From the NCBI GenBank assembly GCA_902801025.1, contig CADCGZ010000028.1:2264-66263 (forward strand): 64,000 bases of DNA, written 5' to 3'. Positions 5,226 through 45,978 of this stretch are shown one piece after another; positions within the stretch are counted from its first letter, which is position 1, and each line of letters opens with the position of its first letter. The stretch comes from an uncultured bacterium (GTDB taxonomy: Bacteria > Verrucomicrobiota > Kiritimatiellia > RFP12 > UBA1067). The position numbers were made by a program, and so were the translations under genes. The notes under the pieces were generated by a model, which saw only the letters and a list, made by a program, of their open reading frames with translations, did not search any database and had not been told where the DNA came from.

Positions 5226-5446
5226 CTTTTCTTCTGTCAGATTCTCCCCGCTCGCCCGTATACTAGCATGCTCATAGCGAGCGTCCTGTCTTCTCCTGTG
5301 GCTCATATCATTCTCGACTGCGAATTTTAGCGATACGGCGCTTTTACATTTTCTGTAATTCCGCTGGAGACATGTCGACAAAATGTGTCGCGGGCATTTT
5401 GGTCGTTACATCGTATTACCCTTTAAAATCAGGCTTTTTCAGGTTT

Positions 5447-5462
5447 TGGCATGGCGTGTGCT
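5447..5462 (+). promoter_or_regulatory. Candidate sigma-54 (-24/-12) promoter for glnN
   Basis: TTGGCATggcgtGTGCT fits TGGCAC-N5-TTGCW spacing (GG...N10...GC), ~60 nt upstream of the glnN ATG. Confidence 0.35.
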
Positions 5463-5520
5463 AATTGTTCGGCGGCGGATGCGATGGACGCGTTCGACAA
5501 ACCAAACAAGGAACAAGACA

Positions 5521-7623
5521 ATGACGGAAGAGACAAAGGCCGCAACCGACTTCGGCGCCGATGTGTTCGGCGAAGAGGCGATCAACAAGTATTTGAGCAA
5601 GGACACGGCGAAGAAGCTCCAGGCGACGATTCGGGAAGGGAAGCCGCTCGATCCGTCGATCGCGGGCGAAGTCGCACATGGCATCCGCCACTGGGCGATG
5701 GATCGCGGCGCGACGCACTACACGCACTGGTTCCTCCCGATGACCGGCTCCACCGCCGAGAAGCACGACTCGTTCTTGGAACTCAAGGACGGCGAGCCGA
5801 TCATGCAGTTCAGCGGCAAGAACCTGATCGTCGGCGAGCCCGACGCATCGTCTTTCCCGTCTGGCGGCATCCGCTCCACCTTCGAGGCGCGCGGCTACAC
5901 CGCGTGGGATCCGACGTCGCCGGCGTTCATCAAGCGCCACTCGAACGGCGCCACCTTGTGCATCCCGACCGCGTTCTGCGCATACACGGGCGAGTCGCTC
6001 GACAAAAAGACGCCGCTTCTCCGCTCGATGCAGGCGCTCGACAAGTCGCTAAAGCGCCTCATGAAGCTCTTTGGGCGCGCCGAAGGCCATGCCGCGTGCA
6101 CGCTCGGCGCGGAGCAGGAATACTTCCTCATCGACAAGGGATACTGGAAGAAGCGTCCCGACCTCGTGCTTACGGGTCGGACGCTCTTCGGTGCTCCGTC
6201 CGCTAAGGGCCAGCAGCTCGAAGACCACTACTTCGGCACGATTCCAGATCGCGTCATTTCCTTCATGAACGACGTCGAGCGCGAGCTCTGGAAGCTCGGC
6301 ATCCCGGCGAAGACGCGCCACAACGAAGTCGCGCCCGCGCAGTTCGAGCTTGCGCCGCAGTTCGAGGAGCTCAACCTCGCGAGTGACCACAACATGCTCG
6401 TGATGGATACCTTGCGGAACGTCGCCGAAAAGCACGGAATGAAGTGCCTTCTCCACGAGAAGCCCTACGCGGGCGTCAACGGCTCTGGTAAGCACAACAA
6501 CTGGTCCGTCGCCTTCGGCGGCAGGAACCTCCTCGACCCGGGCAACGACCCGCACGAGAACGCCGTGTTCCTCACGATGCTCTGCGCCGTCATCGAGGCG
6601 GTAGACAAGCATGCCGACCTCCTTAGGGCCTCCGTCGCTGGTGCGGGCAACGACCACCGTCTCGGCGCAAACGAAGCGCCGCCCGCTGTCATCTCGATCT
6701 ATGTCGGCGACCAGCTCGCGGAAGTGCTCGACCGCATCGAGAATCCAAAGGGCGCGAAGCACGAGGAAAAGGGCTCCCTCAAGATCGGCGTCGACACGCT
6801 CCCCGCGATTCCGAAGGACGCGACCGACCGCAACCGCACTTCGCCTTTCGCGTTCACCGGCAACAAGTTCGAGTTCCGCGCTCCGGGATCGAGCGTCTGC
6901 TGCTCCGGCCCGATGACGGTCCTCAACACAATCGTCGCCGAGGCGGTAGACAGGATTGCCGCCGAGCTCGACGCCGCCAAGGTCGCCGGAAAGGCGAAGC
7001 CGGGCGAGCACACCGCGGCGTTCCACGTGGCTCTCCAGAAGATACTGCAGGCCTCGCTCAAGACGCACAAGCGCGTCGTGTTCAACGGCAACGGCTATGA
7101 GGCCGACTGGCCGAAGGAAGCCGAGAAGCGCGGTCTTCCCAATGCGCCAGACACGCTCTCCGCCCTGGCCGCGCTTTCGAAGAAGGAGAACGTCTCCCTC
7201 TTCGAGAAGTACGGCGTCATGACGAAGCGCGAGCTCAAGAGCCGCCACGAGATATTCCTCGAGGAATACGCCAACAAGGTGCGCATCGAAGGCAACACGG
7301 CGCTCGACATCGCAAAGACGATGATCCTCCCAGCCGTCCGCGCCGAGTATCTCGAGGTTGCGAAGGCCTACAACGAGACGGATTCCAGCAACGTGAAAAT
7401 CGCAATCGACATGCTTCACGGGCAGATGACGGAACTTGGCAGCGGACTCGTAAAGATGAAGGAGGCGATAGACTACTTGCAGGACGCGCTGAAGAACTAC
7501 GACACTGCGGACACCCTTGCGAGGATGGCCGAGCTCAGGAAGATCGCAGACTCGCTCGAGGCGGTCATCACGAGCGAAAAGTGGCCGCTTCCGAAGTACC
7601 GCGAAATGCTGTTCTTGTATTAG
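5521..7623 (+). CDS. glnN: Glutamine synthetase type III (GlnN)
   Basis: ~700 aa; GSIII N-terminal signature (YTHWFLPMTGSTAEKHDSF) and catalytic-domain motifs. The upstream in-frame extension to 5383 was rejected (implausible Arg-rich leader). Confidence 0.85.
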   Translation: MTEETKAATDFGADVFGEEAINKYLSKDTAKKLQATIREGKPLDPSIAGEVAHGIRHWAMDRGATHYTHWFLPMTGSTAEKHDSFLELKDGEPIMQFSGKNLIVGEPDASSFPSGGIRSTFEARGYTAWDPTSPAFIKRHSNGATLCIPTAFCAYTGESLDKKTPLLRSMQALDKSLKRLMKLFGRAEGHAACTLGAEQEYFLIDKGYWKKRPDLVLTGRTLFGAPSAKGQQLEDHYFGTIPDRVISFMNDVERELWKLGIPAKTRHNEVAPAQFELAPQFEELNLASDHNMLVMDTLRNVAEKHGMKCLLHEKPYAGVNGSGKHNNWSVAFGGRNLLDPGNDPHENAVFLTMLCAVIEAVDKHADLLRASVAGAGNDHRLGANEAPPAVISIYVGDQLAEVLDRIENPKGAKHEEKGSLKIGVDTLPAIPKDATDRNRTSPFAFTGNKFEFRAPGSSVCCSGPMTVLNTIVAEAVDRIAAELDAAKVAGKAKPGEHTAAFHVALQKILQASLKTHKRVVFNGNGYEADWPKEAEKRGLPNAPDTLSALAALSKKENVSLFEKYGVMTKRELKSRHEIFLEEYANKVRIEGNTALDIAKTMILPAVRAEYLEVAKAYNETDSSNVKIAIDMLHGQMTELGSGLVKMKEAIDYLQDALKNYDTADTLARMAELRKIADSLEAVITSEKWPLPKYREMLFLY

Positions 7624-7668
7624 GGGTCAGGGGTTAGGAGTCAGGAGTCAGTGAGTAGTGATTAGTGA
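7622..7668 (+). repeat. Family E tandem heptamer repeat (aggagtc)n at the glnN 3' end / purF leader
   Basis: gtattaggggtcaggggttaggagtcaggagtcagtgagtagtgattagtga. Related copies at 9573-9626 and 57611-57650, each immediately after a stop codon and 20-40 nt before the next start. Confidence 0.7.
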
Positions 7669-7674
7669 TATCAA

Positions 7675-9039
7675 ATGACTGATGAACTAAAGCACGAATG
7701 TGCCGTGGCGATGGTGGTCTTGAGAAAGTCCGCCGTCGCCACCGGCGATTTCGGTGGGACAAAGCTTTCGCTCCTTCTCGAAAAACAGCACAATCGCGGG
7801 CAGGACGGCGCGGGCGCGGCAATACTCTCGGCCAATCCCGAACCTGGCGAGACACCGTACTGGATCGCCAAGTCTGCGTCCGCTACACCGCTCACGGATG
7901 TGCTTGGAATGATCGGGAAGAGAAGCAGTGTTCAGACAGGATTTGAAAGGGTCTTTCTCGGTCATCTTCGCTACGCCACGTTCGGGAAAAACGACGTGGC
8001 GTTCTGTCATCCATTCGTGCACGAGTCGAGCGAACTGAATCATACGCTTCTTCTCGCCGGAAACTTCAACCTCACAAACGCCCACGAGCTTTTCGACGAC
8101 TACCGCCACCGCGGTTCATTCCCGACGAGCAAGTCGGACGGCTATCTCATCTGCGAGATTATTGCACAGGCGCTGAAAAATATTAGCCGTGTAGAACATG
8201 TAGAGCATGTAGAATTAGAACCGAATCTACATGATTCTACATGTTCTGCATGGTCAGAATCTGCTTTGTCACGCGCTATCTCCACGGCATTGAAGAACGC
8301 CGACGGCGCATGGACGCTCTGCGGCATGACCGCAGACGGATGGGCGTTTGCGACGCGCGACCCGCACGGCATCAGGCCTGGCTGGCACTACATCGACGAC
8401 GATGTCGTTGTCGTCGCCTCCGAGCGTGCCGCCATACAGGCGGCGTTCGACGTGCCGCCCGAAGCCGTGAAGGAGCTTCCGCCTGGCGAAGCGCTTGTCG
8501 TCTCGCCGGAAGGGGAAGTCAAGTTTGTTGATTTGAACCGTGCAGAACATGTAGAACGTGTAGAAAGCAATACTTCTGATCTACATGTTTCTACATGTTC
8601 TACACGGCTTGAAAAACCACTTGCCCGTCCCTGCTCTTTCGAGCGCATCTACTTCTCCCGTGCGAACGATGCCGACATCCACCGCGAGCGCAAGGCGCTT
8701 GGCGCGGCACTTGTGCCGCGGATCCTCGAGGCCGCCAATGCGCCGATGGACCGCATCTTCTTCAGCTACATTCCCAACTCCGCGCGCATCGCCTTTCATG
8801 GACTTCTGGAAGATTTGTTCAAGAGATGTGTTTCACCGCAGAGCCGCGTTAATAATATCCCGCGCTTTGGAGAGGTGGCGGTGAAGGACGCGAAGTTCCG
8901 CACGTTCATCGCTGACGCTGCGGCAAGGCGCGAGTTCTACAAGCATGTCTACGACGTGACCTACGGGCTCGTCAAGAAGGACGATACGCTCGTCGTGCTC
9001 GACGATTCGATCGTGCGCTTGGGCCGAAGAGAATCGTGA
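7675..9039 (+). CDS. purF: Amidophosphoribosyltransferase (PurF), N-terminal/major part; ends prematurely at a frameshift/deletion inside the PRPP-binding motif
   Basis: Propeptide plus catalytic Cys (MTDELKHECAV..), RGQDGAG, Fe-S ligand CSFERIYFSRAND, VVLDDSIVR then stop. Contains two in-frame family B repeat insertions (8186-8252, 8538-8608). Confidence 0.7.
   Translation: MTDELKHECAVAMVVLRKSAVATGDFGGTKLSLLLEKQHNRGQDGAGAAILSANPEPGETPYWIAKSASATPLTDVLGMIGKRSSVQTGFERVFLGHLRYATFGKNDVAFCHPFVHESSELNHTLLLAGNFNLTNAHELFDDYRHRGSFPTSKSDGYLICEIIAQALKNISRVEHVEHVELEPNLHDSTCSAWSESALSRAISTALKNADGAWTLCGMTADGWAFATRDPHGIRPGWHYIDDDVVVVASERAAIQAAFDVPPEAVKELPPGEALVVSPEGEVKFVDLNRAEHVERVESNTSDLHVSTCSTRLEKPLARPCSFERIYFSRANDADIHRERKALGAALVPRILEAANAPMDRIFFSYIPNSARIAFHGLLEDLFKRCVSPQSRVNNIPRFGEVAVKDAKFRTFIADAAARREFYKHVYDVTYGLVKKDDTLVVLDDSIVRLGRRES
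8186..8252 (+). repeat. Family B palindromic element (gtagaacatgtagaa / ttctacatgttctac arms), copy 1, in frame inside purF
   Basis: Imperfect 66-bp hairpin; translated as SRVEHVEHVELEPNLHDSTCSAW. Confidence 0.75.
8538..8608 (+). repeat. Family B palindromic element, copy 2, in frame inside purF
   Basis: ccgtgcagaacatgtagaacgtgtagaaag...ctacatgtttctacatgttctacacgg; translated NRAEHVERVESNTSDLHVSTCSTRLEKP. Confidence 0.75.
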
Positions 9040-9572
9040 TCGCCTCTTCCGCGCCACCAATCCGCTACCCAGACTGCTATGGCATCGACATGTCGACGCT
9101 GGGAGAGCTTGTAGCATTCAAGGCGCTTGTAAATTTGCTGGATGGGGAACGGGGAACGTATCCCCCGAGCGAAGCGAGCGCCGAAGGCGGCTCAATGCGG
9201 GGTGGGAACGGGGAACGGGAGTTGCGCGAAGCGCTTGCCGAAATTGAACATCTACACGTTTCTACATGTTCTACACGGTTAAAATCATTAAACCCTCTCG
9301 CATCCCTCTATGCGCGCTTCACTGAAAAGCAACACGCTGCAGAAATTGCCCGACTTCTTACCCCTCCGGGAATGAAGGCCGAAGTCGTTGTGGTCTATCA
9401 GACGATTGAAGACTTGCATAAGTCTCTTGCTCCCGTTCCCGGTTCCCGGTTCCCCGTTCCCCGAATTGGTGACTGGTATTTCACTGGCGACTATCCGACA
9501 CCTGGCGGATACAAGGTGCTGCGAAAGGCGCTTCTGAATTACTTGGATAAGAATTCGGAAAGGTCGTATTAG
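9036..9572 (+). CDS. purF: PurF C-terminal fragment in a different frame (GTG 9036 overlaps the upstream stop); carries three repeat insertions
   Basis: SAPPIRYPDCYGIDM ... GDWYFTGDYPT match the PurF C-terminus. In-frame family A (9144-9221, 9430-9465) and family B half-unit (9250-9278) insertions. Confidence 0.6.
   Translation: MIASSAPPIRYPDCYGIDMSTLGELVAFKALVNLLDGERGTYPPSEASAEGGSMRGGNGERELREALAEIEHLHVSTCSTRLKSLNPLASLYARFTEKQHAAEIARLLTPPGMKAEVVVVYQTIEDLHKSLAPVPGSRFPVPRIGDWYFTGDYPTPGGYKVLRKALLNYLDKNSERSY
9144..9221 (+). repeat. Family A element (ggggaacggggaacg terminal direct repeats flanking a gtatcccccgagcgaagcgagcgccgaaggcgg core), in frame in purF
   Basis: Translated [26 protein letters not shown]. 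The same unit occurs in pyrG (12768-12838) and, reversed and duplicated, in carB (15488-15627). Confidence 0.75.
9250..9278 (+). repeat. Family B half-element (right arm only) in frame in the purF C-terminal fragment
   Basis: atctacacgtttctacatgttctacacgg followed by ttaaaat, as in other copies. Confidence 0.6.
9430..9465 (+). repeat. Family A core oligomer, reverse orientation (cccgttcccggttcccggttccccgttcccc), in frame in purF
   Basis: Translated APVPGSRFPVPRI. Confidence 0.6.
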
Positions 9573-9626
9573 GGGTCAGTAATTAGGAGTCAGGAGTCAG
9601 TAGTCAGGGGTCAGGAGTCAGAGAAA
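9573..9626 (+). repeat. Family E tandem heptamer repeat between purF and carA
   Basis: gtattaggggtcagtaattaggagtcaggagtcagtagtcaggggtcaggagtcagag. Confidence 0.7.
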
Positions 9627-9633
9627 GGAATTT

Positions 9634-10827
9634 ATGAACTATAGTGAAAAGTGGAAGGTGGAACGCGAACGCAAGGCGTATCTCGCACTTGCGGACGGCA
9701 CTGTGTTCCACGGCGTCGCTTTTGGCGCTAAGAAGGACGCGCTTGGCGAAGTCGTCTTCAACACCGGTATGTGCGGCTATCAGGAAATACTAACCGATCC
9801 AAGCTACGCCGGGCAGTTCGTCACGCTTACCCCCGCAGAAGTCGGTAACTACGGCATAAATGCCGAAGACATAGAAAGCCGCAAGTTGTTCTTATCGGGT
9901 CTTGTCATTGGCGATTTGACCGCGCCTAGCAACTGGCGCTCCGAAAAGAGCTTGGACGACTACCTGAAGGAGAACGGCGTACCTGGCATTTATGGCGTCG
10001 ATACGCGCGCTCTAACGTTGCACTTGAGAGATCATGGTAACCAGAAAGCCTTTCTGTACGTTGGGGAACGGGGAATGGGGAACGGGGAACGGGAGGCGGT
10101 TGCCAAGGCGCGTGAATGGGAAGGGCTCGACGGCCAGGACTATGCGGCAAAGGTGACATGCGAGAAGGGGTATGAGTTTAAGACAGGATTAACAGGATTA
10201 ACAAGATTATCTGGGGACATGTCCACAGACCCCAAAAATCCTGTAAATCTTGTAAATCCTGTCAAAAGAATAGTCTGCTACGACTTCGGCGTGAAGACAA
10301 ATATCCTCCGTTCGCTTGCGTCGTGGGCAAAGGTCACCGTCGTTCCCGCGAAGACGCCTGCTGAAGAAGTCCTCAAGATGAAACCTGACGGCGTGTTCCT
10401 CTCAAACGGCCCCGCCGACCCCGCGGCAGTTACCTACGCCATAGAGAACATCAAAAAGTTGTTGGGGCCACTTCCCATAATGGGAATTTGTTTGGGGCAT
10501 CAGTTGCTCTCGCTTGCCTGTGGTGCGAAGACTGGGCGGCTAAAGTTCGGTCACCACGGCTGTAACCATCCAGTGAAGAACCTTGCGACAGGCCATGTGG
10601 AGATAACGAGTCAGAACCACAACTTCGCAGTCTTGCCAGAGACGGTTCCGGATTGCCTTGAAGTCACGCACATAAACCTCAACGACAACTCTATCGAGGG
10701 TGTCAGGCACAAGACGCTTCCCGCGTTCTCGGTGCAGTACCACCCCGAGTCTTGCCCCGGTCCGCACGACTCAAAGTATCTCTTCGACGAATTCAGAAAG
10801 ATGGTATTAGCCGTGCAGAACGTGTAG
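9634..10827 (+). CDS. carA: Carbamoyl-phosphate synthase small (glutamine amidotransferase) subunit, with two in-frame repeat insertions in the inter-domain linker
   Basis: GEVVFNTGMCGYQEILTDPSY, CLGHQLL, GHHGCNHPV, YHPES motifs. Insertions: family A 10063-10095 (GERGMGNGERE) and family D 10183-10264. Confidence 0.9.
   Translation: MNYSEKWKVERERKAYLALADGTVFHGVAFGAKKDALGEVVFNTGMCGYQEILTDPSYAGQFVTLTPAEVGNYGINAEDIESRKLFLSGLVIGDLTAPSNWRSEKSLDDYLKENGVPGIYGVDTRALTLHLRDHGNQKAFLYVGERGMGNGEREAVAKAREWEGLDGQDYAAKVTCEKGYEFKTGLTGLTRLSGDMSTDPKNPVNLVNPVKRIVCYDFGVKTNILRSLASWAKVTVVPAKTPAEEVLKMKPDGVFLSNGPADPAAVTYAIENIKKLLGPLPIMGICLGHQLLSLACGAKTGRLKFGHHGCNHPVKNLATGHVEITSQNHNFAVLPETVPDCLEVTHINLNDNSIEGVRHKTLPAFSVQYHPESCPGPHDSKYLFDEFRKMVLAVQNV
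10063..10095 (+). repeat. Family A oligomer (ggggaacggggaatggggaacggggaacggg) in frame in carA
   Basis: Direct sequence identity to other family A cores. Confidence 0.65.
10183..10264 (+). repeat. Family D 82-bp palindromic element (acaggattaacaggattaacaagatt ... aatcctgtaaatcttgtaaatcctgt) in frame in carA
   Basis: Near-perfect inverted repeat around the ggggacatgtccacagacccc centre; translated KTGLTGLTRLSGDMSTDPKNPVNLVNPV where E. coli CarA has only a short linker. Confidence 0.7.
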
Positions 10828-10925
10828 ATCGTGTAGAAAGGAGAAATTTAACCATGTGGAACATGTAAAACATCCAGTAGAAAGTGAATATGCAAATCTA
10901 CATGTTTCTACATGTTCTACACGGT
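10811..10925 (+). repeat. Family B element, long copy (~115 bp), at the carA stop / carA-pyrG intergenic region
   Basis: ccgtgcagaacgtgtagatcgtgtagaaag....ctacatgtttctacatgttctacacgg; supplies the last codons and stop of carA. May also act as a terminator-like hairpin. Confidence 0.75.
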
Positions 10926-10938
10926 TAAATAAACAGCC

Positions 10939-12872
10939 ATGAAAAAGCAAGTCAAATACGTATTTATCACCGGCGGCGTGGTTAGCTCGCTTGGAAAGGG
11001 CGTCACAAGCGCGTCACTTGCGCTTCTCTTGAAGAGTCGCGGCTACAGGGTCTTCATGCAGAAGCTCGACCCGTATCTCAACGTCGATCCCGGCACGATG
11101 TCGCCCTACCAGCACGGCGAGGTGTTCGTGACAGACGACGGCGCAGAGACAGACCTCGACCTCGGCCACTACGAGCGTTTCGCGGGCGTGACGTGCTCTA
11201 AGGCGTCGAACTACACCTCTGGCCGTATCTACTCAGCCGTCCTCGCGCGCGAACGCGCGGGCGGCTACCTCGGCGGAACGGTGCAGGTCGTGCCGCACAT
11301 CACCGACGAAATCAAGGCGGCGATCAGGAGTGCCGGCGAAGCGCATGGCGACGAGCCCGCGCCAGACATCGTCCTCTGCGAAATAGGCGGAGTATCGGGC
11401 GACATCGAGTCGCTCCCGTTCCTCGAGGCCGCGCGCCAGTTCCGCTTCGAAGAGGGAAATGAGAACACTTGCTTCGTGCACCTGACGCTCGTTCCCTATC
11501 TCAAGGCGGCGGGCGAGCTCAAGACAAAACCGTCGCAGCACTCCGTCGGCATGCTGCGAAACATCGGCATCATCCCTGACATCCTTGTCTGCCGCACCGA
11601 AATGACGATTCCCGAGGAGCACCTCAAGAAGCTCGCCATGTTCTGCAACGTGAAGCGCGAGTGCGTAATCGAGGAAAAGGATGTCGCAGACTCTGTCTAT
11701 GCCGTGCCGCGCGAACTGCGCGAGCAGGGTCTCGACGAGCAGGTCTTGAGGCAGGTGCGTCTCGACCTTTGGCCGATTAAGCACACGGTCTGGGACACGC
11801 TCGTCCGCAAGGCGACGCAGCCGAAGAAGCGCTGCCGTATCGCCCTTGTCGGGAAGTACATCTCGATACGCGACGCCTACAAGTCAGTTCACGAGGCCTT
11901 GCAGCACGCCGGCATGGCAAACGACTGCAAGGTCGAAGTCGTGCCTATCGAAGCGGAAGAAATCTTAACGCAGAGGCGCAGAGGCGCAGAGGCGGGGAAA
12001 GAATCGTCCTCGTCTGCATCTGACGGCCAGCAAGCCGGCAAATCATCAAAATCTCTCTGCGACTCTGCGTCTCTGCGTTTAAAAAATATCGACGGCATTC
12101 TCGTCCCCGGCGGCTTTGGGTCGAGGGGTGTAGAGGGCAAGATCGCCGCGATCAAGTATGCACGCGAGAAGAAGATTCCGTTCCTCGGCATCTGCCTCGG
12201 CATGCAGTGCACTGTCATCGAGTATGCGCGCGATGTCCTCGGCTGGAAAGACGCCAACTCGACGGAGTTCGACGAGAACACCACGCACCCCGTGATCGAC
12301 TTGATGGAAGAGCAGCGCGGCGTCACGCAGAAGGGCGGCACGATGCGCCTCGGCGCTTATCCGTGCGTCCTCGAGAAGGGCTCTCTCGCTGATAAGCTGT
12401 ATAGCCACAAAGAACACAAAGATAACTCTGCGCCTCTCGGCACTCGCTTCGCTCGGCTTGGCTCGCTACAAAACGCGAGCCCCGCTTCCGCGGCGGTTAC
12501 GCGACTCTGCGTTAAAAACAAAGACGCGCCCATTATTTCCGAGCGACATCGCCACCGCTACGAGCTTGCGAATGGCGGCAAAGTGCAGAAGGCGCTGACG
12601 GCCGCAGGGCTCAATGTAAGCGGCACGTCGCCTGACGGAAAACTCGTCGAGATAGTGGAGCTGCCGGGCCACCCCTACTTCATCGCCTCGCAGTTCCACC
12701 CCGAGTTCAAGTCGCGCCCGACAATCCCGCATCCGCTGTTCAACGGCCTTGTAAAAGCCGCGTTGAGGAACGGGAAACGGGGAACGGGTAACGGGGAACG
12801 TATCCCCCGAGCGAAGCGAGTCGCCGAAGGCGATGCCCTAGCAGGGGTGGTAACGGGAAGAGGGAGTGAAGA

Positions 12873-12876
<4 letters not shown>
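10939..12876 (+). CDS. pyrG: CTP synthase (645 aa versus ~545 typical) with two large in-frame repeat insertions and a repeat-derived C-terminal extension
   Basis: N-terminal synthetase and GATase motifs ([31 protein letters not shown]). Insertions at 11964-12088 and 12422-12528 (family C) and a family A tail at 12768-12838. Confidence 0.9.
11964..12088 (+). repeat. Family C palindromic element (aacgcagaggcgcagaggcgcagagg ... ctctctgcgactctgcgtctctgcgtt), ~125 bp, in frame in pyrG
   Basis: Translated [36 protein letters not shown] in a surface loop relative to E. coli PyrG. Confidence 0.75.
12422..12528 (+). repeat. Composite family C/A-like insertion in pyrG (ctctgcgcctct...cgcttcgctcgg...cgactctgcgttaaaaa)
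   Basis: ~42-aa insertion ([43 protein letters not shown]) immediately before the conserved ERHRHRYE. Confidence 0.6.
12768..12838 (+). repeat. Family A element forming the pyrG C-terminal extension
   Basis: gggaaacggggaacgggtaacggggaacgtatcccccgagcgaagcgagtcgccgaaggcg, translated [21 protein letters not shown]. Confidence 0.7.
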
Positions 12877-16199
<3,323 letters not shown>

Positions 16200-21411: not shown

Positions 21412-21427
21412 CTATAAACCATGTAGA

Positions 21428-21485
21428 ACATGCAGAACATGAAGAAATCTACACGATCTACACGTTCTACACGGCTAAATAACTG
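21428..21485 (+). repeat. Family B palindromic element between ligA and pyrC
   Basis: accatgtagaacatgcagaacatgaagaaatctacacgatctacacgttctacacgg followed by ctaaataa. Confidence 0.7.
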
Positions 21486-31302: not shown

Positions 31303-31755
31303 ATGGCGGCTACGCGCAGACAGGCCCGCGAATGGGCGATTCAGATGCTGACGGCGGCGGATCTGACGGCGGCGGATCTAAATCCGCCGGACGACGTCGG
31401 GCAGTTCATGGTTTCCTTCTGGGAAGAGCTTTCCTCTCTCGACAGCGAAGAGGGGAGAGCCAGTCCCAAGGGCGAGATGAAGGATTTCGCTGAAGCGCGC
31501 GTAGTTGGCGTCCTTGCTAACCAAAAGGAGATAGACGAGATACTTGTCCCGCTTCTTGCGAAATGGGATCTCTACCGCCTCGGCACAATCGAACGCGCCG
31601 TCCTCAGGATGGGTGTATGGGAAATGAAGTGGTCGGATGTTCCGAAGCCCGTAGTCATCAACGAGGCGATCGACCTTGCCAACTGGTTCTCTACCCCAAA
31701 GTCGAGGACGCTTATCAACGCCGTCCTCGACAAGTACGGTAAGGAACTGAAATAG
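31303..31755 (+). CDS. nusB: Transcription antitermination factor NusB
   Basis: ARE.A.Q.LY ... N..I.... family signature. Confidence 0.8.
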   Translation: MAATRRQAREWAIQMLTAADLTAADLNPPDDVGQFMVSFWEELSSLDSEEGRASPKGEMKDFAEARVVGVLANQKEIDEILVPLLAKWDLYRLGTIERAVLRMGVWEMKWSDVPKPVVINEAIDLANWFSTPKSRTLINAVLDKYGKELK

Positions 31756-34810: not shown

Positions 34811-36670
34811 ATGAAAACGATAACAATTCTTGCCGCAGTCATGTCTGTTTCGAGTGTGGCTTCGGCTGGAACGATGCTTACTACCTGGGGAGAGAAGGTT
34901 ACGAGCGAGAACGCCTGGCGTGACTATCCACGCCCTCAGATGGTGCGCCAGAACTGGACCAACCTCAACGGAGAATGGGAGTATGCGGTGACGAGCGTGA
35001 CCAATACGCCCGGACGCCCCGAGCAATGGGACGGGAAGATCCGCGTACCGTTCTGCATCGAGTCTGCGCTTTCCGGCGTCGGGCGGCTTCTGGAACCCGA
35101 CGAGTTCCTTTGGTACACGCGCAAGATATCATGCGACCCGAAACCCGGCGAAAGAATGCTGCTCCACTTCGGCGGCGTAGACTTCCGCACGATGGTGTTC
35201 ATCGGGCATGACGAGGTGACGGATGTTCCGCACGAAGGCGGGCAGAATCCCTTTACGCTCGATATCACGGACTTCGTGAAGAAAGGCGAGAACGAGCTTA
35301 CCGTCTGCGTGTGGGATCCAACCGAGAGATTCATCAACTCCCGAGGCAAGCAGTGCTTCAAGCCCCACGGATGCTTCTACACGCGCGTCTCCGGAATCTG
35401 GCAGACGGTGTGGATGGAGACGGTGCCCGAGAAGTACATCTCCGGCTACAGCGTAGTTGCAGACATCGACAAGGGGGAAGTGACGCTAAGTTTTCGGGGA
35501 ACGGGGAACGGGGAACGGGGAACGGTTGAAATCGAGACCTCTGCGTCTCCGCGCCTCTGCGTTGAAAAGACATTTGCCCCCAACGAGCCGGTTACAGTCA
35601 AGTTGCCCAAGCCAGTTGAATTGTGGTCGCCGGAGAACCCGAAGCTCTACAACTTCACCGCGAAGTACGGCAAGGACGAGATCAAGGGCTACTTCGGCAT
35701 GCGCAAGTTCGAGAAGCGGGCTGACGCGAAGGGGATTCTTCGGTTCTTTCTCAACAACGAGCCATATTACGTGATGGGCACTCTCGACCAGGGATGGTGG
35801 CCGGACGGGCTCTTGACGCCGCCTTCGGAAGAGGCGATGGCGTTCGACATCAAGACCCTCAAGGACTGCGGCTTCAACACCATGCGCAAGCACATCAAGG
35901 TCGAGCCGTTCCGCTACTATGCACTCTGCGACAGGATGGGCCTTCTCGTGATACAGGACCTCCCGAGCGGCAACGGAAACGCGGTCGATCCAATTGGGGT
36001 TGGCGTCGTTCCGCGCTATGGCCTGCAGCGCCAGGAGATGAAAGAGATGATGGACGTCCTCCAGACATTCCCCTCGATCGTGATGTGGAACCCCTACAAC
36101 GAGGGATGGTCGCAGCCAGGCGAATTCCTTACTCATTCCATGCTTGACTTCGTGCGCCGCTACGACCGTACGCGTCTCGTGAACGGTCCAAGCGGGTGGT
36201 GGGACTGGGAAGGCGGGCATCTCCTTCCAAATGGCTGGGACTGGAACAGGCGTGTTCTTACGAATCACAGGCCGGAGGGCGAATGCGAGGCGGCTGACAC
36301 GGTGGATCTCCATCTCTACCGCGGCCCCGACATGCTTGCGGTGAATCCGCGCCGCATAAGTTTCCTTGGCGAGTTCGGCGGGCTCGGACATCCCGTAGAA
36401 GGGCATCTATGGAAGGAGGCCAAGGGCAGCTGGGGATATGGCGGCATTTCGGACACGAAGAATCGCGAAGGTCTTGAAAAGGCATATCTCGGCCTCATGA
36501 AAAAACTCGGCGATCTCGCGGAGAAGGGACTTGGCGGTTCTATCTACACGCAGACGACCGACGTTGAGATCGAGATCAACGGTCTCCTAACATACGACCG
36601 AAAGGTACTGAAGTACAATCCAGAAGTCCTCAAGGCCGCACATGAGGCGGTCATCAGGCGCACAAAATGA
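34811..36670 (+). CDS. Glycoside hydrolase family 2-like (beta-galactosidase/mannosidase/glucuronidase type), secreted, with in-frame family A and family C repeat insertions
   Basis: GH2 sugar-binding N-domain (NLNGEWEY.., LLHFGGVDF...VFIGHDEV) and catalytic TIM region (NEPYY..., MWNPYNEGW). Repeat insertion at 35496-35563 (GTGNGERGTVEIETSASPRLCVEK). Confidence 0.7.
   Translation: MKTITILAAVMSVSSVASAGTMLTTWGEKVTSENAWRDYPRPQMVRQNWTNLNGEWEYAVTSVTNTPGRPEQWDGKIRVPFCIESALSGVGRLLEPDEFLWYTRKISCDPKPGERMLLHFGGVDFRTMVFIGHDEVTDVPHEGGQNPFTLDITDFVKKGENELTVCVWDPTERFINSRGKQCFKPHGCFYTRVSGIWQTVWMETVPEKYISGYSVVADIDKGEVTLSFRGTGNGERGTVEIETSASPRLCVEKTFAPNEPVTVKLPKPVELWSPENPKLYNFTAKYGKDEIKGYFGMRKFEKRADAKGILRFFLNNEPYYVMGTLDQGWWPDGLLTPPSEEAMAFDIKTLKDCGFNTMRKHIKVEPFRYYALCDRMGLLVIQDLPSGNGNAVDPIGVGVVPRYGLQRQEMKEMMDVLQTFPSIVMWNPYNEGWSQPGEFLTHSMLDFVRRYDRTRLVNGPSGWWDWEGGHLLPNGWDWNRRVLTNHRPEGECEAADTVDLHLYRGPDMLAVNPRRISFLGEFGGLGHPVEGHLWKEAKGSWGYGGISDTKNREGLEKAYLGLMKKLGDLAEKGLGGSIYTQTTDVEIEINGLLTYDRKVLKYNPEVLKAAHEAVIRRTK
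35496..35525 (+). repeat. Family A oligomer (ggggaacggggaacggggaacgggg) in frame in the GH2 gene
   Basis: Identical core to the purF/carA/pyrG/carB copies. Confidence 0.65.
35538..35563 (+). repeat. Family C arm (cctctgcgtctccgcgcctctgcgtt) in frame in the GH2 gene, adjacent to the family A unit
   Basis: Matches the ctctgcgtctctgcgtt arm of the pyrG element. Confidence 0.55.
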
Positions 36671-39144: not shown

Positions 39145-42100
39145 ATGAAAAAGATGCTCCTTCCTTTTCTGGCCATTGTGGCCGTATTCTTTTGCTTCGC
39201 CGACGACGGCGAGAATCGTACTTCACCGGACGGGTTGAAGGTCCTGATGATCGGGAACAGCTTCTCGATCAGCTGCACGCGGCAGCTGCCGCTGGTCGCC
39301 GAGGCGAACGGGCACAAGCTCGACCTCGCCTCGCTCTATATCGGCGGATGCTCGCTCGAGCGCCACTGGCGGAACGTCGAGGCCGCCGCGACGAACGCGA
39401 CGTTCAAGCCCTACCGGTTCGACAGGTTTGTGGAAGGGCGGTGCGTCGTCGAGAAGGGTGCGGCGAACATCCCGGACGCGCTCGCGATGGACAAGTGGGA
39501 TGTCGTGACGCTCCAGCAGGCGAGCCACTTCAGCTGGGATCCAGCGACCTACCATCCGTGGGGCGACAATCTTGTCGCGAAGATCCGCGAGCTTGCGCCG
39601 CAGGCGAAGATCGTCGTGCAGGAGACGTGGAGCTATCCTCCGTGGGACAAGCGGCTCAAGAAGTTTGGCTTCGACCAGGTCGAGATGTATGCGCGCCTGC
39701 ACGACGCATACGCCGCCTTCGCGAAGAAGTACGGATTCGGCATAATCCCCGTCGGCACCGCGGCGGAGATATGCGCCGACCGCAACTCGCTCTTCACGAA
39801 GCCAGACTTCCATTTCAACCACGAGGAGGGCGAGTACCTCCAGGCGCTTGTCTGGGACGCTGCTATTTTCGGATTCAAAATCAACCAGTCGTGCGATTAC
39901 AGGCCGGAGGGCATGTCCGAAGCGAGGGCGGACGAACTGATGACGGCGGCAATTCTCGCGAACATTCATCGGCTTGGCGACGGCAAGGCCATGTCCGTCG
40001 ACCGCGCCTTCCGCGACGCGCGTGTGACGCGTGGCAACACCAACATCCTCCGCGTCCAGCCGATAGACGAGGCGTCGTGGGTGTGGCATCCAGGCGTGGG
40101 CGAGCCGAAAGCCGGAACGACTGATTTCTGGGACGGCGAGAGACACGGCAACCTGGTCGACGCGGGCTTGACGATACTCAAGTTCCGTAAGTCGTTCGAT
40201 GTCGCAGACGGCGACGGGACGCTTGTCTTCGATGTCTCGGCCGACGAGAGGTTCGTCCTGTTCCTCGATGGCAAGTTCGTTGCCCGCGGACCGAATCGCG
40301 GAACCGTGGAGAACTGGCAGTACCAGACATATATTGCCACGGACCTTAAGCCGGGGCGCCATATCTTCGAGGCGTATGTCCAACGGCTTGGCGACTTTGC
40401 GCCTCTTGCTCAGCTTTCGTATCGCGGCGGATTTGTCTTCAAGGCGAACGGCGCGTATGACGCTAAGCTGACGACAGGCAAGGCCGATTGGGAGGTAGGG
40501 CTTGTTCCCGGTGTCCGCTCCATTGGCAAGGCCGCTGGCGCGTGGGGCACGGGCTCGCAGTTCGAGATTGTTGGATGTGGGCCTTATTCTGGCGAGCCGA
40601 CGGAATGGAAGAAGTCCGTCATTGTGCGTGGCGCCGCAGGGTCAAAAGGGCCGCGGATCTATGGTGGACGGACGAGCGGCTGGATGCTTTTCCCGTCGCA
40701 GATTCCCGATCAGACTGAATATCCATGTGTCCCAGGGCACGTCAAGGCGGTTGCGAAGGGCGCCGAGTTCCGCAGTCAGCATGTATACACTGAGGACGAG
40801 GCGAAGGAGACGGTTGACCTAACTAAGCCGTTCACCGTTCCCGCGAACACGAAGATGCAGCTCGCATGGGATCTCGGGCGCTACTACTGCGCATATCCAG
40901 ATGTCGTTCTCTCCGGCGGCAAGGGGGCAAAGTTCGCGATCTGCTTCGCTGAGGCATCGCATCGTGGCGACAATCACCTCAAGACAAGCGAGCCGAATGC
41001 ACGCGACTTGATCGTCGGTCGCTATCTTCCCGCGTTCGGCGATACGTTTGTGAGCGACGGACGGAAGGACGCAAAGTTTTCCGCGCCGTGGTTCCGCTGC
41101 GGAAAGTGGGTTCGCATCGACATCGAGACGAAGGACGAGCCGCTGACGGTCGACGCCGTAGGGCTCGTCGAAAGCCGCTATCCCGTCGAGATGGAGAGCG
41201 TCTTTTCGTCGCCCGACGATCCGTCGCTCGGCGCCATACGCGACATATCGGCGCGCGCGATGCAGATGTGCTGCCACGAAATGCTTTTCGACTGCCCGTT
41301 CTACGAACAGCAGATGTATCCGGGCGACACGCGCGTCCAGCTGAACGTCCTTTCGGCGATGTCGCGCGACGACCGCATCGTCAAGCGCGCGATCGAGATA
41401 TACGACCTCAATACGCGCGACGACGGGCAGTGTCCGTTCAACTTCCCGACGCGCGGTACGCAGGAGGGCGCGAGCTACACGCTTTGCTATCTTCTTATGT
41501 ACGGCGACTACGTGATGAACCATGCCGACCGCGAATGGCTGAGGGCGCGTCTCCCTGGCTTAAGGAAGTCGATGGCGGGAATGGAATACTACGAGAACAA
41601 GGACGGCCTTCTCGAGGATATCCCCGGGTGGAACTTCATGGACTGGGTCGTTGGCTGGGATGGCGACGGAACCGCGCCCGGCTGCCGGTTCGGCGACGGC
41701 GTGAACGCGGAACTCAATCTCTATTGGAACCTTGCGATGCGTTCCGCTGCCGCAGTTGAGCGCGCGCTTGGCAACGAGTTGCAGGCGAAATACTGGGAAG
41801 AGAAGTCGGACAAGCTCAAGCAGGCGGTTGTCAAGACGTTCTGGGACGAGAAGCGCGGCATTTTCGCCGACACGCCTGCGAAGAAGGATTTCTCGGAACA
41901 CGCTCAGGCGCTTGCGCTTCTTGGCGACGTCCTCCCTGCGGGCAAGGCCGAGACGACGTTCCGGCATCTCGTCGATGACAAGGACCTCAAGCGCTGCACC
42001 GTGTATTTCTCTTACTACCTCTTCGAGACATATTTCAAGTTCGGGCGCGGCGACCTTTTCTTGAAGCGCCTCGACCTCTGGCGCGACTACGTCAAGAAGG

Positions 42101-42441
42101 GGCTTACGACGACGCAGGAAGCACCCGATTCCGGAAAGAACGGGCAGAACGAGTCGAGGAGCGACTGCCACGCTTGGGGCGCGCATCCGATCTGGTTCAT
42201 GCAGACGGGGCTTGCGGGCATCAAGCCGGCCGCGCCATTCTTTGCGAAGGTCCGCGTCGCGCCGTGCCCGGGAGGGCTTAAGTCGCTCAAGGCGACGCAT
42301 CCCCACCCAAAGGGCTGGATCGAGGTCGACCTCAAGTTCGACGGCGACAAGGCGACGGGAACGGTTGTCACGCCTGTTCCGGGGACATTTGAGTTTGGCG
42401 GAAAGACGGTCGAGCTGAAGGCGGGAATCAACGCCCTGTGA
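39145..42441 (+). CDS. Fusion protein: N-terminal DUF4886 (SGNH-hydrolase-like) domain plus C-terminal alpha-L-rhamnosidase-like (GH78 six-hairpin) domain
   Basis: LMIGNSFS...VVTLQQASHFS (DUF4886/SGNH); GH78-like C-terminal half (MCCHEMLFDCPFYEQQMYPGD, SDCHAWGAHP). Confidence 0.65.
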   Translation: MKKMLLPFLAIVAVFFCFADDGENRTSPDGLKVLMIGNSFSISCTRQLPLVAEANGHKLDLASLYIGGCSLERHWRNVEAAATNATFKPYRFDRFVEGRCVVEKGAANIPDALAMDKWDVVTLQQASHFSWDPATYHPWGDNLVAKIRELAPQAKIVVQETWSYPPWDKRLKKFGFDQVEMYARLHDAYAAFAKKYGFGIIPVGTAAEICADRNSLFTKPDFHFNHEEGEYLQALVWDAAIFGFKINQSCDYRPEGMSEARADELMTAAILANIHRLGDGKAMSVDRAFRDARVTRGNTNILRVQPIDEASWVWHPGVGEPKAGTTDFWDGERHGNLVDAGLTILKFRKSFDVADGDGTLVFDVSADERFVLFLDGKFVARGPNRGTVENWQYQTYIATDLKPGRHIFEAYVQRLGDFAPLAQLSYRGGFVFKANGAYDAKLTTGKADWEVGLVPGVRSIGKAAGAWGTGSQFEIVGCGPYSGEPTEWKKSVIVRGAAGSKGPRIYGGRTSGWMLFPSQIPDQTEYPCVPGHVKAVAKGAEFRSQHVYTEDEAKETVDLTKPFTVPANTKMQLAWDLGRYYCAYPDVVLSGGKGAKFAICFAEASHRGDNHLKTSEPNARDLIVGRYLPAFGDTFVSDGRKDAKFSAPWFRCGKWVRIDIETKDEPLTVDAVGLVESRYPVEMESVFSSPDDPSLGAIRDISARAMQMCCHEMLFDCPFYEQQMYPGDTRVQLNVLSAMSRDDRIVKRAIEIYDLNTRDDGQCPFNFPTRGTQEGASYTLCYLLMYGDYVMNHADREWLRARLPGLRKSMAGMEYYENKDGLLEDIPGWNFMDWVVGWDGDGTAPGCRFGDGVNAELNLYWNLAMRSAAAVERALGNELQAKYWEEKSDKLKQAVVKTFWDEKRGIFADTPAKKDFSEHAQALALLGDVLPAGKAETTFRHLVDDKDLKRCTVYFSYYLFETYFKFGRGDLFLKRLDLWRDYVKKGLTTTQEAPDSGKNGQNESRSDCHAWGAHPIWFMQTGLAGIKPAAPFFAKVRVAPCPGGLKSLKATHPHPKGWIEVDLKFDGDKATGTVVTPVPGTFEFGGKTVELKAGINAL

Positions 42442-42480: not shown

Positions 42481-44874
42481 ATGTATCTAAAGCAGCTCGA
42501 CATAGTCGGATTTAAGAGTTTCGCCGACAAGACGAAGCTCACCTTCGATCCTGGCCTTATCGCCATCGTGGGTCCGAATGGCTGCGGCAAATCCAACGTC
42601 TCCGATGCGATCCGCTGGGTGCTTGGCGAGCAGCGTCCTACGGCGCTCAGGTGCTCGAAGCTCGTTGATGTCGTCTTCAACGGCACCGACACGAGAAAGC
42701 CCCTTGGCCTTGCGGAAGTAACGATCACCTTTGCGGACTGCGAGAAGGAGCTTGGCACCGACTACCACGAGGTGACGATACAGCGCCGCGTCTATCGCGA
42801 CGGCTCGGGCGAATATTTCCTAAACAAGCAGCCGTGCCGTCTCAGGGACATCCAGCACCTCCTGATGGGCACCGGCATCGGCACGTCGTCCTACTCCGTC
42901 ATGGCCCAGGGCCAGATCGACGCGATTCTCTCTTCAAAGCCGGAGGACCGCCGCGGCGTGTTCGAGGAAGCGGCTGGGATCACGAAGTTCAAGGCCGACC
43001 GCAAGGAGGCCCTGAGGAAGATCGAGCAGACCGAGCAGAACCTGCTGCGCGAAGCCGACGTCCTCAAGGAGATGAAGCGCCAGATCGGCTCTCTCCAGCG
43101 TCAGGTCGGCAAGGCGAAGAAGTACAAGGAACTTCACGACGAGCTGCGCGTCCTCGATATCTACGTTTCTCGGCAGAAGATCAAGGCCTTCGACGAGGAG
43201 CTTGTTCAGAACGCGTCGAACAGGCGCGACATCGACAAGTCGATTGAAGAAGCGTCTGGTGCCGTGGCCGAGGCGGAGCGCGGACAGCAGGAACTTCACG
43301 CCCAGGTACACGAGCTCGAGGAGCGTCTCCAGTCGCTCGCGTCACGCCAGGCGGCGGCGGACAACGCCTACAGCCGCGCCAACGAAGTCATCGGCGTGAA
43401 CGCGCAGCGCATCGAGGAGTACGGCCAGTTCGCGGAGCGCGACGAGCGCGAGATAGCCGACGCAAAGGCGCAGCTCGAGGAAATCGCGATGCAGGTCGAT
43501 TCCCTCGACCAGAAGACGCGTCTTCTTACCGAGTCGCTTGCCACGGCGAAGGATGCGCTCGCCGAGAGCGAGGCCGCGTTTTCCGAGATTCAGGCGAAGA
43601 TCGACGAGAAGCGCAGCGACGTACAGCGCCGCAGGCACGAAATCGCGAACACTACGCTTACGGGCATTCTCGCGGAGGACGCTAAAGTCTCGCGCGAGGG
43701 CAAGACTGAGACTTGGCCCGCCGGCACAAAGGTCACGACGGCCGACAGGCGCGAGATACTCATGGCCGAGATCGCTGCGAGCGAGGACGAACTGCGGACG
43801 CTTGAAGTCTCCACGATGTCGGTTTCCCAGCAGCTCACGGAGCGTCGTATCGCGACGAGCCAGATGGAGCAGGAACTTTCGTTCGTCGGCCAGCAGAACG
43901 ATTCTGCGCGCCGTCGCCGCGACGAGCTGCAGAGGGCGGTCGACGGGCGTCTCGAGGGCATACAGCGCTATCATGACTCCATAGCGCGTCTCAAGGAGGA
44001 GTCGGGCGATCTTCTCGGACAGCTCGAGGAACTGAAGGCCGCGGCTGCGGACTGCCGCGCCGAGATGGAAGACGAGCGAGCCCGTCGCCAGACGATGTTC
44101 GAGAGGATTGCCGAAGTCGACCGCGACGTAGCGGCGAAGCGCGCCGAGCTCGACCGTGCGCGCGACTTCAGGGGCAAACTCGAAGTCGCCGCAGCAGAGG
44201 CGACGATGCGCCGCCAGAACATCTACGACCACCTTCAGGACGAATACGGCCTATTTGCCGACGCGGTCCTGCGCGAGCCCGACCCCAAGTGGGAGGACGG
44301 CGTGGAGCCGCCGCATGCAGAGCTCGAGGCCAAGGTGGCGCGGCTCCAGTCCGAAATCGCCGCGCTCGGGCCGGTCAACATGGTTGCAATCGACGAGTGC
44401 CGCGAGCTCGAGGAACGCTATGCGAAGGAGAAGGCCCAGGAAGAGGACCTCTTGGCGGCGAAGGCGCAGATACTTTCGCTCATCGACAACCTGAACCTCA
44501 CGTCGAGCGAGATGTTCAAGAAGACGTTCGAGCAGGCGAACGCCAACTTCCAGACGATGTTCACGCGGCTTTTCGGCGGCGGCGAGGCGCGGCTCGTGCT
44601 TTTGGACAACGAGGAGGACCCGCTTGAATGCGGCATCGACATCATTGCGCGTCCTCCGGGCAAGCGTCCGCAGAGCGTGACGCTGCTTTCCGGCGGCGAA
44701 CGCACGATGACGGCCGTCGCGCTTCTCTTCTCGATCTTCATGATCAAGCCCGCGCCGTTCTGCATGCTCGACGAGCTCGACGCCGCGCTTGACGATGCGA
44801 ACATCGGCAGGTTCCGTCAGCCGCGTAATCTCCATGAAGCTCAGCGACCTCGGCGCAGGTGCAGGCAAGAAGAA
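42481..44874 (+). CDS. smc: SMC-family chromosome segregation ATPase, atypically short (~798 aa): no recognisable hinge, C-terminus truncated after Walker B, and continuous in frame with lpxB in this sequence
   Basis: N-terminal head (GPNGCGKSN, FEEAAGITKFK), long coiled coil, signature LSGGERTM and Walker B LDELDAALD. Then only ~20 residues before the lpxB Met; the H-loop (QFIVITH) is missing. A -1/+1 alternative frame would terminate at a TGA overlapping the lpxB ATG. Confidence 0.6.
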
Positions 44875-45978
44875 ATGAAGCTGCTCGTTCTCGCCGGTGA
44901 GGAGTCGGGTGTCCACTACGCGGAGCGGATATCTGCGGCAGTCCGCACGCGCCGCCCCGATGTGGAGATACGCGGCTATTCCGACTACGGGTTCAAGACC
45001 GCCGACCTCGCGGTGTTCGGGATATGGGCGGTCTTGAGGCGGATATTCTTCTTTCTCAGGGTGAAGCGCACGATGGTTCGTGCTATCGACGAGTGGAAGC
45101 CAGATGTCGTCTGCACGATAGACTATCCCGGCATGAACCTGAAGCTCGCGGCCTACGCTAAGTCGAAGGGCATCAAGGCGGTTCACGTAGTCTGTCCGCA
45201 GGTCTGGGCTTGGCACCAGGGCCGCATACCGCGCATAGAACGCTCTCTAGACAAGATCTGCTGCTTTTTCCCGTTTGAACCGGCGATATTCCGCCCTGGG
45301 CTCGCCGAGTTCGTCGGCCATCCTCTCGCGCAGGAATTTGAAGGCGGTGCGAACGGCGGCGAGGGGAGGCGCGAGAAGGGTCTTGTTGCGCTACTCCCCG
45401 GTTCGCGTCTCGGCGAGATCGAAAAGCACCTCCCGACGCTTCTTGAGGCAGTCGCGACGCTTGAGGGGATTCGCGTTGCGATTCCTGCCGCGAACGAACG
45501 CGCACGTGCCGCGATTGAAAGAATCGTGGCCAATTTCAAAACCAAGCTTTCAACTTTAAACTTTAAACTTTCAACTCTAACTGTCCAGTCGGGTGGCGCA
45601 CGCGAACTTCTTCGCCGTGCCGATGTCGCTGCAGTGGCGAGCGGAACGGCGACGCTTGAGGCCGCGCTTGCCCGTTGCCCGACTGTTCTCGTCTACAAGG
45701 TAGGTCCCATTCTCGCAGCGTTCCTGCGACGCGCGATAAACGGCGTGAAGCATGTCGGGCTTGCGAACATCATCGCCGAGAAGTCTGGCGCGGAATGTCC
45801 GATGCCAGAGCTCCTTCAGGAGAATTTCACCGTCGAGGCCGTGCGCGGCTATCTTGAACGCTGGCTGGGCGACCCTGCGTCGCGAGCGGAAGCGGCAAAG
45901 AAGCTCGACAAGACGCTTGAAATGCTCGAGAGTAGCGGCGACGCCTACGCTCGCATTGCCGATGCGCTACTGGCGTAA
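44875..45978 (+). CDS. lpxB: Lipid-A-disaccharide synthase LpxB, with an in-frame family F repeat insertion
   Basis: [12 protein letters not shown]..., [21 protein letters not shown] motifs; insertion at 45530-45592. Confidence 0.8.
45530..45592 (+). repeat. Family F tandem repeat (ctttcaact / ctttaaact units) in frame in lpxB
   Basis: aatttcaaaaccaagctttcaactttaaactttaaactttcaactctaactg. Confidence 0.65.

Follow-up and report, generated by a model that had tools for sequence, protein, structure and literature searches.

Amidophosphoribosyltransferases of the classical PurF type (TIGR01134; PDB 1gph/1ao0 from B. subtilis and 1ecb from E. coli) are the closest described counterparts of the purF gene considered here, which lies in a window of 64,000 nucleotides, the window being the whole stretch of DNA that was analysed. 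The gene shares with them an N-terminal Cys nucleophile behind a short propeptide (as in B. subtilis), a class-II glutaminase domain, a PRTase domain whose PRPP loop reads DDSIVRG-x-T, and an SSPPI..P..YGID motif; it differs from them by its long form of 646 aa, by a loop that has GNT where theirs has GTT, and by five repeat-derived in-frame insertions. The state in which the gene is found in the window has its own precedent: local assembly errors in short-read metagenome scaffolds have been documented for IDBA-UD, and their defining test is that not even one perfectly matching read is found (Chen, Anantharaman, Shaiber, Eren & Banfield 2020, Genome Res, PMC7111523). The lesions of the window resemble such errors in that they are short, from tens of nt to about 120 nt, and confined to a single assembly, in that conserved genes are broken or fused by them, and in that they recur elsewhere in sibling assemblies and not in the output of other assemblers. 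The assembler of the window contig is assigned indirectly, and the likeness is one of signature.

The organism is a rumen Kiritimatiellae population, predicted to have a single long-form amidophosphoribosyltransferase of 646 aa, whose presumed reaction is PRPP + glutamine -> phosphoribosylamine. The whole protein aligns with classical PurF, from the N-terminal nucleophile to the SSPPI..P..YGID motif, at about 26% identity, and MTDELKHEC9 is placed opposite TDSPREEC of the classical enzyme. Pfam GATase_6 detects the class-II (Ntn) glutamine amidotransferase domain (30.8 bits, cut-off 27 bits); the TIGR01134 model scores the intact protein (P0001) at 124.4 bits, below its equivalog cut-off of 350, and the 5' part of the window gene at 87 bits. 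The best match of P0001 in a representative genome comes from a Kiritimatiellia MAG (69% identity), its nearest kin outside the Kiritimatiellae are Bacteroidota enzymes of ~630 aa (37-40% identity), and its relatives are annotated as amidophosphoribosyltransferase by JGI and NCBI. Judged by its sequence, the enzyme is a member of a divergent long-form subfamily; no long-form PurF came up among solved structures. The GTT(S/T) that the sequence-only reading had taken to be invariant in the PRPP loop is not found in this group: the intact gene of this family has DDSIVRGNT, aligning with DDSIVRGTTSR-RIVTMLRE of B. subtilis (PDB 1gph). The true start of the gene is the ATG at 7675, which retains the propeptide and Cys9; gene models that begin at MVVL (P0002, 634 aa, and P0056, 442 aa) remove both.

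In the window, purF is split into two ORFs. The first (7675..9039, 454 aa) has the terminus DDSIVRLGRRES (...LVVLDDSIVRLGRRES) before its stop codon, and the second (9036..9572) begins with a GTG at 9036 that overlaps the TGA of the first (GTGA). The 5' part proper, at 7675..9018 on the plus strand, encodes residues 1-448. These take in the propeptide (MTDELKHE), Cys9 as the catalytic residue, the glutaminase domain and, as far as DDSIVR, the first half of the PRTase domain; the frame of this part then runs on, on the same strand, through six spurious codons (LGRRES) to the stop at 9037-9039. The real continuation is legible in the second frame from 9018 (LGPKRIVIASSAPPIRYPDCYGIDM; LGPKRIVIASS...) to 9572: this 3' part (9018..9572, plus strand, frame +2 relative to the 5' part) encodes residues 463-646 and ends in NSERSY and a stop, and tblastn matches residues 460-646 of P0001 to 9006-9569. 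The GTG at 9036 is merely the first start codon available in its frame and no real start. According to the alignment with intact orthologues, 14 residues are absent, GNTMKNAILPMLDR (449-462 of the 646-aa protein), which by alignment correspond in B. subtilis PurF to the part of the PRPP loop that binds phosphate (its second half) and to the helix that follows.

In the nucleotide sequence, all of this comes down to one deletion of 43 nt (missing letters GCGGCAACACGATGAAGAACGCGATTCTCCCGATGCTCGACCG). Its two ends meet within 9016 to 9019, the exact point being ambiguous by a 2-nt GC, and the join reads GTGCGC followed directly by TTGGGCC. The frameshift and the deletion of ~14 codons at the PRPP loop that the sequence-only reading had described, with the two parts in different frames, are both present; they are not separate lesions, since 43 = 3 x 14 + 1, so that frame change and codon loss are one event and not two. 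Re-insertion of the 43 nt into the window gene yields exactly P0001, with 646 aa and one stop codon, and apart from these 43 nt the window gene and the intact alleles match at 100%. Diagnostic strings for the two alleles are GATCGTGCGCTTGGGCCGAAG for the deletion junction and GGCAACACGATGAAGAACGCG and GGCAACACGATGAAGAACGCGATTCTCCC for the allele with the 43 nt.

Ten other, independent assemblies of the same population cover the site (loci L001-L010, from 10 different ENA assembly records). All ten carry the 43 nt and a complete PRPP loop, which in the window breaks off after DDSIVR with the loss of GNTMKNAILPMLDR; of 11 assemblies, one alone has the deletion. Flanks are 99.1-100% identical to the window on both sides (99.8-100% at nine of the loci and 99.1-99.4% at L010), and L002 is 100.000% identical to the window across 18.4 kb except for the 43 nt. 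When the two purF parts were joined as a query against 5.8 billion proteins, the intact product was found on 10 contigs, as P0001 (646 aa) and P0002 (634 aa, the same protein with a later start), and the truncated product P0056 (442 aa) on 1 contig of 84.7 kb. The gene is also intact in all five remoter relatives from JGI metagenomes (about 85-95% identity), bringing the related loci with intact purF to 15 of 15, and relatives at 72-93% identity likewise have full-length purF ORFs. The deletion junction occurs in none of the 7 JGI metagenome loci that were found with a 24-mer matching both alleles. Signs of a pseudogene, such as a lesion common to relatives, substitutions or further lesions in purF, were absent from the comparison of the 15 related loci. 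Together, the ten assemblies of the identical population and the five relatives exclude lineage-level pseudogenisation and leave either a very recent deletion in one sample or an artefact. Two explanations had been put forward from the sequence, a recent pseudogene and an assembly indel; the evidence supports the latter, and the intact single ORF recovered ten times in re-sequenced material (L001-L010) speaks against the former. The purF of the population is almost certainly normal.

The five repeat insertions claimed for purF are borne out by alignment to the Kiritimatiellae orthologue P0091, which is without them and against which they were defined. All are in frame, lie on the plus strand of the gene and are present in the intact alleles: 8182..8241 (ISRVEHVEHVELEPNLHDST, a hairpin-type GTAGAACATGTAGA element), 8548..8601 (HVERVESNTSDLHVSTCS), 9141..9203 (21 residues, a GGGGAAC-type element), 9225..9281 (REALAEIEH...TRL, half of a TCTACATGTTCTAC element) and 9435..9458 (VPGSRFPV, a GGGGAAC-type element on the reverse strand). 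Rickettsia palindromic elements (RPE) insert in frame into protein-coding genes, and the insertions described here are similar to them in being short palindromic or hairpin units that lie in frame within conserved housekeeping genes and keep the ORFs open; they differ in phylum and sequence, and the comparison bears on the insertions, not on the break in purF. The enzyme presumably tolerates all five. The notion that purF decayed as a "landing pad for repeats" is not supported, as the same five insertions are found in intact alleles and the neighbouring carA, pyrG and carB are repeat-bearing yet intact. Because all intact alleles have the insertions, repeat load and purF break are unrelated, and the insertions are no sign of decay. 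Repeat elements as the cause of the deletion were also considered and rejected: the lost 43 nt are ordinary conserved coding sequence and hold no repeat.

The window was walked by exact-protein look-ups and compared with 33 contigs, and two further structural lesions private to the window were found. One is a deletion of 113 nt at the 3' end of a smc-like gene (44813..44818, near 44815), which takes out the C-terminal ATPase segment, shifts the frame and yields a false 1165-aa Smc-LpxB fusion ORF (42481..45978); the full 113 nt, with separate genes for 836 and 367 aa, are present in eight other assemblies. The other is a perfect 15-nt tandem duplication (CTGACGGCGGCGGAT x2) at the 5' end of nusB (31348..31362, plus strand), seen in none of the five other assemblies covering the site. 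Despite the three private structural lesions (-43, -113 and +15), 0 substitutions separate the window from the two contigs of ERZ27280713 over 41.6 kb. Structural lesions that come without point differences are unlike divergence, which would bring substitutions first.

Similar lesions are distributed unevenly over the compared assemblies. The contigs named 'scaffold_N' under ERZ919xxx, ERZ1049xxx and ERZ1060668 contain, over 147.8 kb of aligned sequence, 15 private indels (2-122 nt), whereas indels of such type are absent from both contigs labelled 'STEW19-1_SAMEA..._METAG-scaffold_N' (117.3 kb aligned) and MEGAHIT 'k141_' contigs (198.0 kb aligned), i.e., 0 in 315.4 kb for the latter two together. 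The STEW19-1 labels presumably denote third-party re-assemblies of the samples of Stewart et al. 2019. The k141_ contigs differ from the window only by the copy number of a GGGGAAC heptamer at 35495 and by small indels in a strain of ~99% identity (ERZ27280719). With equal rates in all classes, the 15 indels would land together in the first class with a probability of (147.8/463.2)^15, or ~4e-8 by our own arithmetic. Study and sample vary along with assembler class in this comparison, and a biological difference between the sample sets may contribute, which is a point against an assembly error.

The 15 indels of the 'scaffold_N' contigs are mostly frame-breaking deletions in housekeeping genes. 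They affect carB (-122, -51, -75 and +10), carA (-74), smc (-43, nested), prs/pth (-61), pta (-77), the ribD region (-14 and +2), a GFO/IDH gene (+46 and -93), the 3' end of a gene for a 1098-aa glycosidase (39145-42441; -52) and two genes that matched no family (-35 at ~25584, -18 at 23682). Some sites are hit repeatedly: the breakpoint 15691/15692 is common to three scaffolds of the first class with differing lesions (-51, -75 and +10), and scaffold_1534 has its own 43-nt deletion nested inside the same 113 nt of smc that are lost from the window. Such recurrence of sites with differing lesions fits trouble spots at contig ends and not independent mutations. The purF site, unlike those in carB and smc, is without a lesion in any other assembly, an observation that goes against an assembly error. 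Microhomology at the junctions amounts to 0-2 nt in 13 of 13 deletions examined, which is the chance level, as for random joins. Spontaneous bacterial deletions usually exploit longer direct repeats.

A local assembly error is in our view very probably the cause of the break in purF. Three features known from such errors are found here: (i) the lesion is private to one assembly (one of 11); (ii) the same contig has more lesions of the kind (-113 in smc and +15 in nusB); and (iii) their occurrence is tied to one pipeline (15 in 147.8 kb versus 0 in 315.4 kb). Contig ends would have been joined faultily in a short-read metagenome scaffold, most likely by IDBA-UD, and the faulty join would have lost 43 nt from an otherwise intact purF. 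Joins made by a de Bruijn assembler are normally backed by k-mers that span them, which counts against this cause and means that the error would have to lie in the scaffolding or gap-closing step. Read support for the junction is presumably absent. From the error signature and the occurrence of P0056 in NCBI and ENA, like scaffold_1563, we infer that the window contig derives from IDBA-UD, and the 'scaffold_N' records of the first class likewise appear to be IDBA-UD output. Stewart et al. 2019 assembled single rumen samples each with idba_ud --pre_correction (PMC6785717), and the RUG genomes of that study have contigs called scaffold_N (title of L013).

The main competing explanation holds that the 43-nt deletion is real and very recent, that it occurred in a strain or sub-population dominating one sample, and that purF is a fresh pseudogene there, with purines supplied by the rumen. 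The rumen is purine-rich, so that loss of purF could be tolerated. The truncated gene is indeed present in the public record too (P0056, 442 aa, on the 84.7-kb contig), short-read assemblers usually require k-mer support at a junction, and no second purF, classical or long-form, was found within the 64-kb window by tblastn with a classical PurF (from L095) and P0001, both queries matching the broken locus and short repeat-derived peptides only. We nevertheless consider such a deletion unlikely: only one of 11 assemblies would have it, in a population that is otherwise identical, and without a single substitution in 41.6 kb; a piece of smc would have gone "missing" from this contig too, and 15 nt of nusB would have been doubled in it; lesions of this type hit other essential genes in sibling assemblies of one class and are not seen in contigs from other assemblers; and the junction is without a direct repeat of the kind that drives slippage deletions. 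Slippage between direct repeats at purF was tried as a mechanism and rejected, the shared junction sequence being the 2-nt GC only. Were the deletion real, there would be a purF-null, purine-auxotrophic sub-population of rumen Kiritimatiellae at zero substitutions from its prototrophic siblings, which we regard as distinctly improbable; it would offer a snapshot of ongoing gene loss by cross-feeding (Black Queen-type).

Far less probable still is decay at the level of the lineage, by which purF would have become a pseudogene of the species after colonisation by repeats and would be substituted by purine salvage or a second purF. The five repeat-derived insertions would suit this explanation, as would the outcome of Pfam and NCBIfam searches, which found no other pur genes among the remaining large ORFs of the 64-kb window; yet ten assemblies have the same five insertions within an unbroken 646-aa ORF that preserves Cys9 and the DDSIVRGNT loop, full-length ORFs are retained by related strains at 72-93% identity, and the adjacent genes carA, pyrG and carB, which bear repeats as well, are intact in the window itself. 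Dependence on purine salvage, to which the sequence-only reading had pointed, is not justified as an inference from 64 kb; prs is present in the window at about 53146-54105. A purF that functions as it stands, by programmed frameshifting or as a split enzyme of two subunits, deserves hardly any credence either. The GTGA overlap of the two ORFs is of the type seen in translationally coupled genes, but the 14 residues are missing from the DNA in all frames, so that recoding cannot bring them back; among them is the half of the PRPP loop that binds phosphate (aligned with GTTSR of B. subtilis PurF); and in all other assemblies the GTG at 9036 sits within continuous coding sequence.

The local assembly error, as the preferred explanation, is biologically minor and its meaning is a practical caution for users of public genomes. 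The window contig and its sibling 'scaffold_N' assemblies would contain roughly one spurious indel of 14-122 nt per 10-20 kb, breaking or fusing housekeeping genes (purF, smc-lpxB, carA, carB, prs-pth, pta and ribD). Such indels are open to misreading as pseudogenisation, auxotrophy or new gene fusions, and metabolic reconstructions and pseudogene counts from these genomes need to be checked against independent assemblies or reads. The neighbourhood of purF is a run of glutamine-using genes, comprising glnA (GS-III), purF, carA, pyrG and carB.

Short repeats of at least three families lie in frame within housekeeping genes of the window, namely purF, carA, pyrG, carB and a GH2 gene, and the same families also occupy intergenic spacers. 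The repeats are found at 7600-16000, 21420-21470, 35490-35525 and 57630 and comprise a hairpin unit (GTAGAACATGTAGA/TCTACATGTTCTAC), runs of a GGGGAAC heptamer, and an element of the form GGATTAACAGGATTAAC...CCTGTAAATCTTGTAAATCC. The ORFs that carry them remain open in many assemblies, and the set of insertions carried varies between strains: none of the five purF insertions of the window is present in P0091, a Kiritimatiellae PurF orthologue, and the product of one related strain, P0003, bears an additional purF insertion (LTGLTGLSG...NPVNLVNPV) matching the carA element at 10180-10265. At the site of this extra insertion, the product of another related strain, P0004, has a different additional block, similar to that of P0091. 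In-frame palindromic elements are known from Rickettsia (RPE), and in their position within genes the short repeats of the window may be likened to them. Runs of GGTCAGGAGTCAG-like units (GGGGTCAGGGGTTAGGAGTCAGGAGTCAGTGAGTAGTGATTAGTGAT) occur at 7625-7670, 9575-9625 and 57632; such runs lie immediately behind the glnA and purF stop codons, ahead of the next gene.

Four of these housekeeping genes belong to a succession of five (5383-16199), each making or using glutamine: glnA (type III glutamine synthetase), purF, carA, pyrG and carB, an order kept in all assemblies of the window's population. For purF, alternative starts span 7675-7711. The public gene models P0002 (634 aa) and P0056 (442 aa, truncated) begin at MVVLRK (7711), leaving out the propeptide along with the catalytic Cys9; the ATG at 7675, which yields the intact 646-aa product P0001, is the start that agrees with PurF chemistry.

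In the GH2 gene (34811-36670, 619 aa), the number of GGGGAAC heptamers at 35495-35525 varies by assembly, with two MEGAHIT contigs being 7 and 14 nt shorter. In those contigs the gene falls into two pieces of 234 aa and 355 aa, while in the window the reading frame is kept. The difference could reflect real repeat-length variation, which would then serve as a frame switch, or it could stem from repeat collapse during assembly. At the 5' end of nusB, a perfect 15-nt tandem duplication (CTGACGGCGGCGGAT x2; 31348-31362) encodes LTAAD LTAAD. It is private to the window (0/5 other assemblies covering the site) and either arose in assembly or is a genuine in-frame variant.

Just downstream of a repeat insertion in carB (15480-15640), lesions of -51, -75 and +10 nt (15616-15692) occur in three different sibling 'scaffold_N' assemblies. 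The lesions share their right-hand boundary, 15691/15692, apparently a place where contigs repeatedly end in these assemblies. A 1165-aa ORF with SMC_N and LpxB domains (42481-45978, junction at ~44813-44818) is not a genuine Smc-LpxB fusion: the window lacks 113 nt that are present in eight other assemblies, where an 836-aa smc and a 367-aa lpxB overlap as two distinct genes. In the sibling assembly scaffold_1534, a separate 43-nt deletion falls inside the same 113 nt of smc.
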